From Eledone cirrhosa (lineage: Eukaryota): 64,000 nucleotides of DNA. Below the pieces are notes generated by a model. That model had not been told where the DNA came from and ran no database searches. It saw only the letters and a list, made by a program, of their open reading frames with translations. The stretch covers positions 26,846,001 to 26,910,000 of the forward strand of contig OZ024749.1 in the NCBI GenBank assembly GCA_964016885.1. Reading direction: 5' to 3'. Below, in pieces: positions 14,501 to 60,257 of this stretch. Made by a program: the position numbers and the translations under genes. Numbering within the stretch: the first letter of the stretch is position 1; every line of letters starts with the position of its first letter.

Positions 14501-15017
14501 TTTGTGTGTAAAGAACTCTTAGGTTTCTGGAGAATGGTGCTCTAGCTGGTTGCTAGACTTAAAAATAGCAGTCAAACTTCCTCCATATTACACCCTGCCA
14601 TCCTTAAACAAGAAATGACACAATTGAAAATGTAGTCCTAATTAGATACTCCTAAATATATGGGATGGTCATGACTGGAATGTCTTTGATAATCGGTTTT
14701 ATTAAAGAATGTATTCCTACTCTGCTGCTACACAACCTACTCACACCCTGTTCATCCACCCCCGTACTTACATCAGCCAATATGTACACTCACTCATACA
14801 TATACTTTACACTCACATATGCACTCACATACACATACACAGATATACACATATACACACACATATACACATACATACATGCACACATGTATACACACAT
14901 ACACAGGAACACACATGTATACACATGTACACAGGAACACACACACACACGTTTCATCACCAACATCATTTTTACATCCGTTTTTTTCCAATACGATGTA
15001 TGCTTAATCAAATTATC

Positions 15018-15125
15018 ATTCTGATGATTTGATTAAGCATACATCGTATTTAAAATTGAGTGACACAACTTCAAGTGATTAGCAATTTTAAGTCAACTTA
15101 ACCAATGAAACAATTGTTAATACTG
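15018..15125 (+). ncRNA. Hammerhead-like motif with extended stem II
   Basis: CTGATGA-T-TTGATTAAG...CTTAACCAA-T-GAAA-CAATTG-TT; the downstream tail matches the reverse complement of 7450-7540. Confidence 0.6.
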
Positions 15126-16829
15126 TAAATAAAACCCTTTTTGTACTGTTGACCATGTTATTCTTCACTCTTTCACTATTATTACTCCAAGATTAACTTA
15201 CATAGGAACTCCCGAGAACTCATATACTCGCTACCTAAGGAAAGCTCTTGTTGAGTCAAACAACGGCGTATGCTAAAACTATCCACAATACGGAGTATTC
15301 ACAACCTCTAACTGGATTACCTATAACGATAATTTGTTATCCCTTATATATATATATATATATATATATATATATATATATATATTTGTGTGTGTGTTTC
15401 TATGTCTGTGTTTATATCTACTATATGTTTATGACCCATAACTTAGTAATTTGACAAAAAGGGATTGGTAAAAATAAGTACTGGGATCAATATGACCGAC
15501 TAAAATCCCTTCAAGATGGTGCCCCCAGCATGGCCACTGTCTGATGACTGAAAGAAGTAAAATAAGATAAAAGAATAAGAATAAGTAATCTTCTGCCTGT
15601 TATGTAAGCAACACAGTATGATCAGTGGATTTTGAAACTGGAAGAAAACTTCATATGAAATTATTTTCAAATATAGAATTTCTGGTTTTCATATTTCAGT
15701 AAGATTGTTGGCATTTTACCAAAACTTATGGAGGAAACTTAGTGAAATTTAGTGAATTTTTAGGATTTTATGAAAACTTTTAAATAAAATCTGAGATCCC
15801 AAATAAATATTTAGTGTTTGTTTTGAATTTTTTTTTTATTCAATTTCAGAGAATTCTTCAGCCTTTCCCTTAACCCTTTCATTACCATATTTCTAATGAA
15901 ATACACTCTACATTTGCTTCTGTTAAGGATTTTGTAATATAACTAACTTTCTTATTATCAAACTAGTATTTACAACATACCTTAACAAAAGATTCTTAAA
16001 TGAAATTATGAAAATTAGATAAAAACTGAAAACACTTTGAAACAGGTTTTTGCATCATAGAAACAGGCACAGTTTCAGGTTGTTTTGTATTAAAAGGAAA
16101 GAGATTTTTGAAATTTCAATGAAATCTCCACATCTATATTCTGATATTTAGGACCCATTACTAAAATACATCAGTAGTTTTAAATGGGTAGTGAGAGCTA
16201 CATTTCACATGTAGCCTGGGCTTATTACCAGTTTTGGGGCTTACATATTGCATCTGGCATGGGCCTATTACTAGTTTTGGGCCTGGGCAGATTAGCAGCT
16301 ACAGCGAATTACGTTTTACATCTGGTTATGGCCTATTACTAATTTTAATGAATTAAAATTATACCTATACAAATGAGGAAAACCCAAATCAGGGGAGATA
16401 ATCTAACCCAAATTAAGTACCACGGGTATGTACTAATATATAATTCTATTATGTTTTTGTACGTCACGCGAAGGGAGGTAACTCCTCTATGTTTCAGTTA
16501 CCTGTGTTACTCATTCATACGCACACACACTCATACACATATGTGTGTGCATGTAATAATTATTTTCCCTGAGTCTGTTTATGTGTATGCTTGTGTAGAT
16601 GTGTGTGTATGTAATAATTATTTTTAACTGGCGTTCTTAGATTGGCTACACTTTTGTGGGTGTATATGAGTGTTGTTCAAGGAGCCAAGTCCCTAGCAAT
16701 ATCGAAATAAATTAGAATTATCGAGAATATAAAACGACCGCAGTTGAAAGGTATATACAAATACACATCTGCTCTTTAGCCGTTATTTTTGACGGCACGG
16801 GGCCAGTTAGTACAAATGTACTTGAAAGC

Positions 16830-16995
16830 AGCGATAAACTGGACTCCACCTCGCAGCAAACAGAAGCGGGATTGCCCCAGGATCACCTGTTGAGGAACGT
16901 TCCCAAAAGACCTGATGGCAGTCAACATCACTTGGCACAGACGCGAAAAAGCCGCCGCTGATCGTGATCGTTGGAACCTAGTTACTGCGCGGAAA
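16830..16995 (+). mobile_element. Old RTE-type LINE 3' fragment
   Basis: WTPPRSKQKRDCPRIT...AAADRDRW resembles RTE C-termini. Confidence 0.55.
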
Positions 16996-17559
16996 GGTGC
17001 GGAAGAACCTAAGAATATGCAATATATCGAAATCATGACTCCTCATAGTTAGTAAATGTTAGACCAAGGGACATAACAAGGTATGACATTATGTAAAGGG
17101 AAATAACTCTTGCTTTTCCAGGTATACGGTGTACTGATTATAGACTAGATACATATAGTAACAAAGCCAGAAAGAAACAGTCGATTATATCAACGCCAAT
17201 ACTTGACGGCTGCTATATTTTTATTGACCCCGAAAGGATGAAAGGTAAAGTTGACTTCTGCAGGATTTGAACTCAAAACCCACAAGGCATGGTGTCACTC
17301 TGATACACACATACATGAATACATACATACATGATGGTTGCCTCCTCGGTATCGAGTATTAGAATTTTTTTCGTAACCGTAATACAATTTTCTGTTAGTT
17401 GACCTAAACTAAAGGGCTTCACTGATAGGGTTACATGTGTTGTAATTTCCCAGTTCCATGTTATGGAAAGAAGTTGTGGTGAATCTTTGGAATAGTGCTC
17501 AATAAATATTAATGGCCCTAATATTTGTTGCCATGTTCAAAAGTGGCCCGCCGATGGAA

Positions 17560-17765
17560 TATGTTGCACACCCAGCTCTAGAGTGTGTCTGCCTAGAATA
17601 TGGTGATGGTAAGCGCTCAGACGGGATAACCCTTTTCATGTTCAAGGGAGGTAAGTCTGCGACACGTTCTCCGCCTCCAGTTTTAGTCGAATCGGTCCCA
17701 AGCCCAGGCACTGCTGTTCGTAAGGCGGAGGCGAGAGAGATAGCTAAATATCGGTACTTATTTTG
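17560..17765 (+). mobile_element. CRE/NeSL-type non-LTR retrotransposon fragment (restriction-like endonuclease)
   Basis: DGKRSDGITL..FKGGKS..GTAVRKAEAREIAKYRYL matches the RPDG...AE..K..KY..L motif. Confidence 0.65.
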
Positions 17766-18230
17766 CATATACATATGAGTTATTTTTGTTCATGTGGTTA
17801 ATTATTTTTACATATATTTCATTATTGCACTAGAGCTTGATGAACACAACCACAAGGATATGGTCCGAACGTGGAAGAGCCGAACTCCCACTGTCATCAC
17901 CACCATCTCTCTCGCCCTCCTCATCTCTCGGTATGATGAGTGGGTTACGTACAAAACGTCATTTTGACGTTTTGCGTGTCGATTTCAGTATGGACGTCGC
18001 CCCTTACTTTTGCTATGTAATTATTTCTCTCTCTCTCTCTTTTTAATATGCAAACGTTAATGGGTTGTTCACTACTTTCTTATCTTGAAATAAATATATA
18101 GTTTCACTTTTATTTTGATATATATATATATATATATTCTAGATCTGGAGGGTGTGGTTTCGAGGAAATGGCTGAACGGAATATTTCGATGCGTTTGTTT
18201 ACATTTCGTCTATCGCTTAGAATTTTGTTT

Positions 18231-18327
18231 TTACTTGTTTAAATATTTCGTTAAATATTTTTACTTGTTTAAATATTTCGTTAAATCAAGTATTTACTTG
18301 TTTAAATATTTCGTTAAATCAAGTATT
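18231..18327. repeat. Three tandem copies of ttacttgtttaaatatttcgttaaat
   Basis: Directly visible, upstream of the 18717 ORF. Confidence 0.9.
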
Positions 18328-58243: not shown

Positions 58244-59049
58244 CTGAAAATAGACAAAGTAACATCATCATCATCATTATGATCATTTATTTGTTGTATT
58301 AATATGTGGTGGTGTAGTAGTGGTGTGGTGGTGGTAATGCCGTAATGGTGTAATACATACATCATAACATGCCAGAACAGAGAGATGTACTTTTTATATA
58401 TATATATATATATATATATATATATATATATATATATATATATATATATATACATACATACATACATACATAAGACACATATTTATATGTATATAAATAC
58501 ATATACATACATACATACATACATACACATATATGCATACATATACATACATATACATACATATAGATACATACATACACATATATATACTTACACACAC
58601 ACACACACACACACACACACACACACAGCGAGAAAGAGAGAGAGACACACATACATATACAAATAGACACACATAAAAATATTCATACACAAATACACAT
58701 ATATATATACATATATTACTAAACATCACCAAATTTATTCTAGTAACCTCCGAACATAGTTAACTCATTCAATGAGATAAGTTGATAGGCTGCACATTGT
58801 ATTACAGAGCTGACACACATAGGGCGTTTTATGACAGTGTTCAGGTATTGGTGACACTGAATTAATCTATCACTCCGAGTACCTCAAATTTCCTACCCAC
58901 ACAAATTCGTCTTCCTTACCGATTAATGTATGACTCTACAATCTAATCGGTTGCGTTCAAATTTTAATAATTCAGACTTAGAGTGAGAGAGGAAATGACC
59001 GAAGCTGTGTCCATACCATTTGATAAACTTATTCCACAATTATATATAT

Positions 59050-59260
59050 ATATCATCATCATCATCATCTTCGCTTAACGTCCATTTTCCACGCTAGCAT
59101 AGGTTAGACAGGAGTTGTCACACTTGAGGCAAGGTTGGTCAGGTGACCATGTCTTGCTCATATAGGACTATCTGGCAGGTTTTCTATGGCTGGATGCCCT
59201 TCCTAACACCAACCACATTTACAGTGTGCAACTGGGAACTTTTTACCGTGTTACCTACAT
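59050..59260 (-). mobile_element. RTE 3' UTR fragment
   Basis: ggatgcccttcctaacaccaaccacattt and (CAT)n. Confidence 0.85.
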
Positions 59261-59265
59261 ATATA

Positions 59266-59460
59266 TAGGAACGAGTAGGAACCCGACGGTTGAGCTCAAG
59301 CCGTTTTGTCAGCTAATTCTTGACTAAAATTAGCTGTCGAAACGGCTTGAGCTCAGCCGTCGGGGTCCTACTCGTTCCTATTACCCACTCTACTACCCTA
59401 AGTATTGAGTACTTTGGTGCGTTATGGTCCATCTGGTTCCTTACCACATTTCCTTCGTTA
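59266..59460 (+). ncRNA. Fold-back element retaining the 3' half of a hammerhead
   Basis: Arms 59266-59318 and 59328-59380; GAAA CGGCT tgagctc AGCCG TC. Confidence 0.65.
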
Positions 59461-59734
59461 TATATATATATATATATATATATATATATATATTATTTAT
59501 TTTGTTTGACCTGTTTAGCTTGATTTGTTTTTTGGCTTAGGTGGTTAATGCCTTCTTGACCACTTTTTCAGTTTGTATGGCGTTTTAACTTATTGTTTAG
59601 CTCTGGTTTTTTAACTATTGAGCGCTTGCCAGCATAACTCTCATTTTGTGTTTCGTTTCGCTTTTTCTACCCGCCGAAATGCGATTCTCACTGAATTTAT
59701 ATATATATATATATATATATATATATATACACAC

Positions 59735-59990
59735 ATAAATAGCAATTTCTGTCTGTTTGTGTGTGTATGTGTGAACGTAAAACTCAAAAACTACGAAACC
59801 GGTCTTGTTGAAACTTGACACATGTGTGAGGCTCATGCCTATTTGATTTCTTACATATATTTCATTTTAATGAAAGGGTTCCCCGGGAATTCAAACCCTC
59901 GCTGAAAATCTTTTCCCTCTGCTACCACTGGAACAAAAGCATGACATTAGTCATCTAGAACATAGCATTATGAGGCTGTTTTCTTGCAAA
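59735..59990 (+). mobile_element. Possible non-autonomous Helitron (DINE-like) 5' fragment
   Basis: ataaatagcaatttctgtctgtttg...aactcaaaaactac..ttgaaacttgacac resembles such elements. Confidence 0.35.
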
Positions 59991-60062
59991 AGAATCAAAT
60001 ATTAATAATATTATTATAATATTATTATTATTCACTCAGGAATGCATATTATATATATATAT

Positions 60063-60257
60063 ATTATTGAGTAAAATGACAGGAGGCCGGACTGGTGAAA
60101 TTCCTTTAAAGTTATTTTTGCAGACATGATTCCTTTATGACTTATGCTGATGATGTCGCTGGAATTCTACTGGCCCTTGAAATATATATAATGTCTGCAA
60201 AAATAAAAACTTTAAAGGAATTCCAACAATCCGACCTCCTGTCACTTATTCAATAAT
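60063..60257 (+). ncRNA. Fold-back element with a hammerhead core in the loop
   Basis: Imperfect arms 60063-60127 and 60191-60257; loop CTGATGA..GAAA TATATA TA. Confidence 0.65.

Follow-up and report, generated by a model that had tools for sequence, protein, structure and literature searches.

Palindromic Penelope-like ends in Eledone cirrhosa turn beside the hammerhead motif, at a putative capped RNA start

The window analysed here comprises 64,000 nucleotides (nt) of the Eledone cirrhosa genome (GCA_964016885.1, contig OZ024749.1, positions 26,846,001 to 26,910,000) and harbours five inverted duplications, for which a sequence-only reading had suggested that each turns in or next to the core of a hammerhead ribozyme motif. 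As an explanation it was proposed that the end of the complementary DNA (cDNA), set by ribozyme cleavage or by stalling of the reverse transcriptase (RT), snaps back on a ribozyme stem and primes itself. All five duplications were found in the window at the places described, and each was identified to belong to a separate high-copy repeat family with the ends of a Penelope-like element (PLE), the families being termed S1 to S5. The arms of the duplications are identical at 28 of 29 positions for S1 (14990-15018 and 15022-15050), 228 of 265 for S2 (25733-25991 and 26004-26259), 45 of 45 for S3 (53151-53195 and 53218-53262) and 50 of 54 for S4 (59265-59318 and 59328-59381), while those of S5 (about 60063-60130 and 60188-60257) reach 71-77% identity. 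Below, family positions are counted from the hammerhead core, and short and tail arms are named after the two forms of the element end, which abuts (TA)n.

14990-15018, minus strand: S1 inverted piece, 29 nt copied from the first part of the sense arm (family +2 to +30), of snap-back type
15019-15344, plus strand: S1 sense arm, beginning 2 nt ahead of the core (15021-15027), with a long stem II, GAAA at 15107-15110, a cut predicted from hammerhead rules after 15118, the short end at about 15179 and a tail to about 15344, then (TA)n
25646-25996, minus strand: S2 tail arm, split by a short interspersed element (SINE, 25733-25929), with a degenerate core near 25990
26002-26061, plus strand: S2 short arm, minimal hammerhead with core at 26004-26010
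26062-26259, minus strand: second, independent SINE at the mirror site, outside the S2 fold-back
53064-53218, minus strand: S3 tail arm, beginning at family +2 and forming, with two bases of its partner, a canonical core that is absent from the family
53218-53262, plus strand: S3 short arm, beginning at family +25 (stem III), with a junction overlap of 1 nt
59265-59328, minus strand: S4 short arm, extending to the putative start (initiator A at 59325)
59328-59459, plus strand: S4 tail arm, in which GAAAC, stem III and GUC make up the hammerhead's 3' half; the short end is at 59381 and the tail runs to 59459
60063-60130, minus strand: S5 left arm, old and diverged, stopping near the predicted cut site
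60144-60259, plus strand: S5 right arm, core at 60147-60153, an exception in its family, as S5 arms rarely stop at the core

In several cases this anatomy departs from what had been assumed. The S1 inverted piece stops before the element end is reached. For S2 the short palindrome is real, but about 190 nt of each arm are SINE sequence, and a duplication of 250 nt including flank was hence rejected: because the two SINE copies are less alike (86.8%) than the right one and another copy in the window (91.2%), and because the left one is flanked by its own 16-nt target duplication (25717-25732 = 25930-25945), they were identified as independent insertions into a short palindrome, which by their mirror positions in both arms mimic a long duplication. 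The same SINE (window 25717-25945 and 26046-26259; loci L014, L031 and L082) was observed to enter PLE arms at AATAAT/ATTAT-like sites. The S3 loop had been read as the core, and a canonical CTGAAGA is indeed present at 53220, yet it is assembled by the junction, the family core being CAGAAGA; the CTG/CAG microhomology suggested for this turn (53193-53195 and 53218-53220) shrinks to the single overlapping nucleotide. The S4 turn does lie within the hammerhead, a U3-A8 variant, yet in its loop II and not in stem II as supposed, the 5' core lying about 45 nt upstream of the turn.

Genome copies were gathered by exact sequence patterns, as the similarity search within the genome itself skips repeats and remained empty. 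Exact motif matches amounted to 1207 for S1, 1224 for S2, 15,935 for S4 and 2111 for S5, and two patterns of S3 gave 29,031 and 41,618 matches. All five families possess one fixed end, which lies against (TA)n and exists in a short or a tailed form, and an opposite end that is variable, i.e., truncated at the 5' side. In locus L253 two same-strand S3 copies lie 3258 nt apart around an open reading frame (ORF) of 712 amino acids, with an inverted copy upstream, and it is for S3, at this locus only, that the layout of partially tandem pseudo-long terminal repeats (pLTRs) with an adjacent inverted copy was found. By eye, the frame was judged to hold a YRDD motif, a Cys-rich linker and a GIY-YIG-like C terminus; neither Pfam nor PDB gave a match for it (0 matches each), and among the clusters of its Atlas look-alikes (0.96-0.99) some contain GIY-YIG (31-50% of members) or RVT_1. 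The five families are Penelope-type inverted ends, S1, S2, S4 and S5 being placed by their end anatomy, and the L253 layout is the one described for endonuclease-containing PLEs (PMC8557442). Six S3 copies (L009, L027, L232, L233, L252 and L275) all begin at -53, some of them having extra downstream sequence in common, and probably represent a non-autonomous subfamily or a composite repeat.

Hammerheads were called by motif and inspection of the stems, whereby a candidate motif was found near the fixed end in all five families. The core reads CTGATGA in 67 of 77 S5 copies; for S1 it reads CCGATGA, the U4C variant, in 31 of 64 copies and CTGATGA in 18 of 64, and in S3 it is CAGAAGA, with A at position 4, in 43 of the 48 copies with a full core. 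S2 carries the minimal form and S4 the U3-A8 variant, whose position 7 takes all four bases. Among the matches listed from Rfam (150 of 191) the hammerhead family did not occur, these being microsatellite and hairpin noise only, and the window copies of S1, S2 and S5 fold no better than shuffled sequences. In S4 (L092, L004, L276 and L193) the putative start falls within loop II and a TATA-like box overlaps stem II; RNA starting there would therefore be devoid of the 5' half of the U3-A8 hammerhead. In S3 (e.g., window 13640-13670) a pyrimidine tract ending in CAG precedes the core and resembles a splice acceptor, no spliced insertion having been seen; a spliced 5' exon ahead of S3 +1 to +3 was rejected by eye, the arms having no upstream sequence in common. 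Further hammerhead-like motifs of other families were observed at window positions 2779-3294, 3588-3625, 13411-13448 and 38557-38600, one of them downstream of a GIY-YIG-like frame for which Pfam gave no match.

The 5' ends of arms were placed on real long copies and subsequently remapped with exclusion of all loci coming from junction-biased or upstream patterns, anchors less than 300 nt from the locus start or less than 60 nt from the locus end being likewise excluded, which left 90 (S1), 84 (S2), 119 (S3), 135 (S4) and 130 (S5) arms. End rates were corrected for exposure and are given as the ratio of the rate within a given interval to that of the rest. The S1 ends peak at -8 to +2 (22 ends, ratio 12.5), those of S3 at -7 to +3 (34 ends, ratio 8.0) and those of S4 at +43 to +53 (83 ends, ratio 12.1), and in all three cases the interval corresponds to A-2 to A+8 of a shared Y-AGT motif, which lies at -6/-7, -5 and +45 from the core, respectively. 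S2 ends peak at -8 to -1 (33 ends, ratio 8.8, limited by short references), and none of the 84 S2 arms extends beyond -9 of the references. At the core itself (-5 to +8) the ratios are 6.0, 6.0 and 5.4 for S1, S2 and S3, hence clustering near the core is beyond chance in these families, as had been claimed, but S4 clusters at +45 and S5 is depleted at its core (1 end, ratio 0.2). Predicted cut sites, a test covering S1, S3, S5 and S2 as the S4 anchor straddles its own cut, show no excess of ends (ratios 0.4, 0.5, 1.1 and 0.2), so that the supposed setting of the cDNA end by ribozyme cleavage was not supported. Among other fold-backs (125 kept of 146, 21 AT-rich ones being excluded) a core-like motif was found near 45, scattered from -36 to +237 nt. 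The mapping of turn points relative to hammerheads, proposed earlier as a check, consequently revealed that turns are non-random and not uniform along the elements, yet they do not follow the hammerhead core: with hot spots at -6, -5 and +45, none at the S5 core and the other fold-backs scattered, the idea that ribozyme geometry fixes the turn was not supported. The link is one of adjacency, the hammerhead being a neighbour of the start and not the cause of the turn. Within the window, extra fold-backs of the same families turn away from the five places noted before, and an S3 copy displays its natural upstream sequence:

35409-35546: further S3 fold-back with arm starts at family +26 and +50
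50062-50250: further S4 fold-back with arm starts at +39 and +73
24400-24580: further S5 insertion, in which an inverted piece made up of tail only and a short arm beginning at -17 do not overlap
13600-13850, minus strand: S3 copy without fold-back at the core

The extra G of full-length L1 copies was described as the mark of a copied mRNA cap (PMC11702581; here and below, papers are cited for the portions of them that were covered). Since the peaks of S1, S3 and S4 fall on an initiator-like A, an extra G was predicted directly ahead of it if the end were a cap, and this was then tested with new genome-wide patterns, bases being counted by hand in the first 100 matches per pattern. For S3 the base before the motif A is G in 56, C in 21 and A in 23 cases (first 100 of 2734 matches), as compared to 20 G, 34 C and 46 A one base upstream (first 100 of 820; Fisher P 2e-7), and for S4 it is G in 88 and A in 12 (first 100 of 5877; P 2e-27). 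For S1, 31 G, 6 A and 63 T were counted (first 100 of 133), the T rows largely representing subfamilies with a natural T. Within 30 inspected S3 loci all 19 with G proved to be junctions, for which reason a natural TGAGT subfamily was rejected as the source of the G. In 13 of the 19 S3 cases, and in 15 of 26 for S4, the G is not derivable from the next base of the partner (by eye; 30 loci each). It occurs on short arms as well as on tail arms, and in ten loci (5 of S3, 4 of S4 and 1 of S1) on both. From an extra G at a fixed initiator-like base it was thus argued that the template was a sense, capped RNA and that both arms were copied from RNA. Judging from these three families (S1, S3 and S4), on whose sequence the cap reading rests, the palindrome turn probably corresponds to the putative capped RNA start of the element.

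How the arms pair points in the same direction. Of 82 S4 palindromes, 72 carry the tail on exactly one arm (8 on none, 2 on both), about 41 being expected if the arms were independent, and in 58 of 82 the arms match in a subfamily-specific 9-mer, where 14 were expected and 2000 shuffles gave 22 at most. One tail per pair and a common subfamily suggest that a single RNA was the template. In a sample of 159 distinct junctions the partner was tail-only in 27, the arms having no overlap, and stopped short of the element end in 24, the S1 site included. A tail-only partner cannot be made by snap-back, and together with the double G such partners imply that two RNA-templated cDNAs are needed. The snap-back self-priming proposed at the outset may consequently account for a minority of junctions, namely the 24 with a short partner, but not for the palindromes in general. 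The junctions are joined via overlaps of at least 2 nt (50 of 159, a count given without null comparison and inflated by natural stems), via 1-nt overlaps (25), bluntly (12) or via filler (72). Some fillers (L326, L347, L110, L119 and L197) were noticed to be short templated copies of nearby arm sequence, which presumably resembles polymerase-theta-type end joining. For 135 junctions the longer reach was assigned to the short arm in 67 and to the tail arm in 32, being equal in 20 and of the same type in 16.

The palindromes are thus likely to be head-to-head pairs of Penelope-like ends, for which two cDNAs ran off at a putative capped start and were then joined. The suggested course of events assumes that RNA polymerase II would start inside the pLTR at the A of Y-AGT, and that the RT would begin internally at two sites, yielding the short end and the tail end, an assumption taken from another PLE (PMC11167929); in the families described here the short end would lie about 60-170 nt past the start. 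The endonuclease would nick both strands of the (TA)n target, whereby the 3' end of each nick would serve as primer at either the short or the tail site, in both cases probably on the same RNA. Each cDNA could then reach the RNA 5' end and gain a C, seen as the extra G and read as the cap, and the two 3' ends would be joined bluntly, via short overlaps or via filler after trimming. A minority would snap back 25-80 nt before joining, and priming at a downstream pLTR copy would give rise to long arms running past the motif. That one RT dimer carries out both primings on a single capped sense RNA in a strong-stop-like step, the run-off cDNAs being joined, is put forward tentatively, at a confidence just short of even.

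Several points weigh against this reading. The intervals of the end peaks were picked post hoc, after the data had been viewed, and the loci are first matches, mainly on contig C1, with segmental duplicates included. In those 32 of 135 junctions where the tail arm reaches further, strand displacement or trimming is required, and among arms that overlap and have only one G, some could have been copied by snap-back. The likeness of Y-AGT to an initiator and the TATA-like hexamer at -33 to -27 in 6 of 10 S1, S3 and S4 references were judged against the general consensus sequences and are both given without null comparison. S2 remained without a placed start, since among 80 anchors no copy with natural upstream sequence was found. 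S5 displays only a modest post hoc peak at -116 to -106 (11 ends, ratio 5.3), with a possible start at -114, and G precedes the A in only 5 of its 14 non-natural rows. In a sixth hammerhead family (L022, L138, L143, L160, L289, L326, L330 and L363) an AGT motif marks the arm end in 11 of 15 rows; it precedes a canonical core by 42 nt and a TATA-like box is present at -33, but no extra G was found, the rows having been ascertained on the arm start. Finally, the extra G might stem from a C that was added without template where the RNA end has no cap.

Among the alternatives, the one closest to the sequence-only reading assumes that the folded hammerhead makes the RT stall, upon which the cDNA would snap back on one of the ribozyme stems. 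The clustering at the core in S1, S2 and S3, the 24 short partners and the 50 overlaps of at least 2 nt would agree with it, but an extra G at one particular base is not expected from a stall, the S4 peak lies in loop II at +45, the S5 core is depleted, and two cDNAs templated by RNA are required for tail-only partners and for the double G, which makes this explanation unlikely. Likewise it was considered that the arms are delimited by a discrete RNA 5' end other than a capped start, belonging to trimmed or processed RNA or to short non-autonomous masters, and that the RT adds an untemplated C. Such an end would explain the sharp step between 2734 and 820 matches in S3 and the failure of all S2 arms to extend beyond -9; it is judged quite improbable given that the step falls on an initiator-like A, that several references have TATA-like boxes about 30 nt upstream and that all junctions differ and hence do not stem from a single master palindrome.

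An origin by self-priming of an antisense transcript was proposed for the junction palindromes of rotifer PLEs (PMC3846280) and would be consistent with arms of the same subfamily, yet the extra G lies at the sense 5' end of the initiator-like motif and can occur on both arms, and a tail-only partner would lack any sequence on which to fold back, so that this origin is very improbable here. That hammerhead self-cleavage creates the RNA end at which the cDNA stops appears extremely unlikely: a few arms do end near predicted cuts (2, 4, 6 and 5 ends in S1, S3, S5 and S2), but the cut-site ratios given above are without excess, most arms span the cut, which lies 3' of the core, and self-cleavage was reported to be dispensable for insertion of another PLE in vitro (PMC11167929). 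Next to no weight is given to the idea that the repeats are terminal inverted repeats of miniature inverted-repeat transposable elements (MITEs), with their fixed consensus and shared interior, or mere chance, as the inner junctions differ from copy to copy and the arms face outward, toward fixed ends of the element within (TA)n; for S3 the link to an ORF of putative RT-endonuclease type refutes it.

Apart from these families, the window contains a head-to-head fold-back at 39931-41046 with arms of 547 nt (536 of 547 identical), a loop of 45 nt and outward (TA)n, in which a CTGATGA was seen close to the outer ends, separated from the turn by about 500 nt. At 46226-46831 a (TA)n-centred palindrome was seen (arms 278 of 308, a SINE-like tail on both sides), whose turn is without a visible hammerhead motif. 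Named by eye from the ORF list, a near-complete RTE-like long interspersed element with one stop (42785-46039), a broken copy thereof (7960-10081) and gypsy-like pol fragments (20998-23211) were furthermore noted.

Much of the structure described is known. Endonuclease-containing PLEs (PMC8557442, PMC3846280) likewise have partially tandem pLTRs, an inverted 5' copy and a tail at one end, (TA)n targets, a hammerhead in the pLTR and palindromes at junctions. In contrast to these, the palindromes reported here are mostly devoid of an ORF and 60-300 nt in size, the tails measure 75-170 nt instead of 30-40, and the inner ends fall on a single base and carry an extra G, which the covered portions of both papers do not report. 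There, inversion was ascribed to antisense self-priming or its mechanism left open, the formation of tandem and inverted structures being named as an open question (PMC8557442) and the template strand left undecided (PMC3846280). The in vitro work with the Poseidon element PAc (PMC11167929) revealed that the RT starts internally at two sites which delimit the tail and that both DNA strands are cut and extended, with a predicted dimer and dispensable hammerhead cleavage, while the joining of cDNAs into a palindrome and a capped 5' end are not addressed in the portion covered. L1 twin priming (PMC11702581) is alike in its primers on opposite target strands, its inverted output and its cap G. L1 arms, however, are adjacent with hardly any overlap, whereas the two arms of the palindromes are copies of one and the same 5' stretch, with fixed start sites and without poly(A). 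An L1-type product was thus rejected, only 27 of 159 junctions being non-overlapping; by analogy, the palindromes work like twin priming without being an L1 product.

The minimal hammerheads of PLEs (PMC4209133, PMC3088659) share the type I fold predicted here, the palindromic loop III, the U3-A8 (S4) and U4C (most of S1) variants and pairs on opposite strands 100-700 bp apart. Different from these are the A at position 4 of S3, 'U4A' being absent from the main text of PMC3088659, and the putative S4 start within loop II, owing to which a 5' RNA copy would miss half of the ribozyme. A preprint on retrozymes has, in the portion covered, no bearing on the turn. For Drosophila virilis Penelope (PMC2377424) an initiator start inside the pLTR, upstream of the ORF and near the hammerhead, was reported, its internal promoter being TATA-less with a downstream promoter element; here some references have TATA-like boxes and no downstream promoter element was evident by eye. 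Inverted pLTRs, one-sided tails, junction palindromes, pLTR promoters and U3-A8 and U4C cores are therefore already known. No paper was found in which the inversion points of PLEs are tied to capped starts, subscription papers and supplements lying outside the coverage and the junction figures of PMC3846280 and PMC11167929 possibly being of relevance. Taken together, a known structure is described here with new, testable mechanistic evidence.

For the biology of PLEs this means that the hammerhead is removed as the cause of the turn and that a sizeable class of this genome's short palindromes, with 41,618 and 15,935 exact matches for S3 and S4, would find an explanation. The existing PAc in vitro system would be able to test the model of a capped template directly. 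If the model is true, one RNA would account for the inversion of the pLTR, for the tail on one side only and for palindromes without an ORF in the tens of thousands, and the start sites of PLEs would become readable from genome sequence alone, without RNA data.

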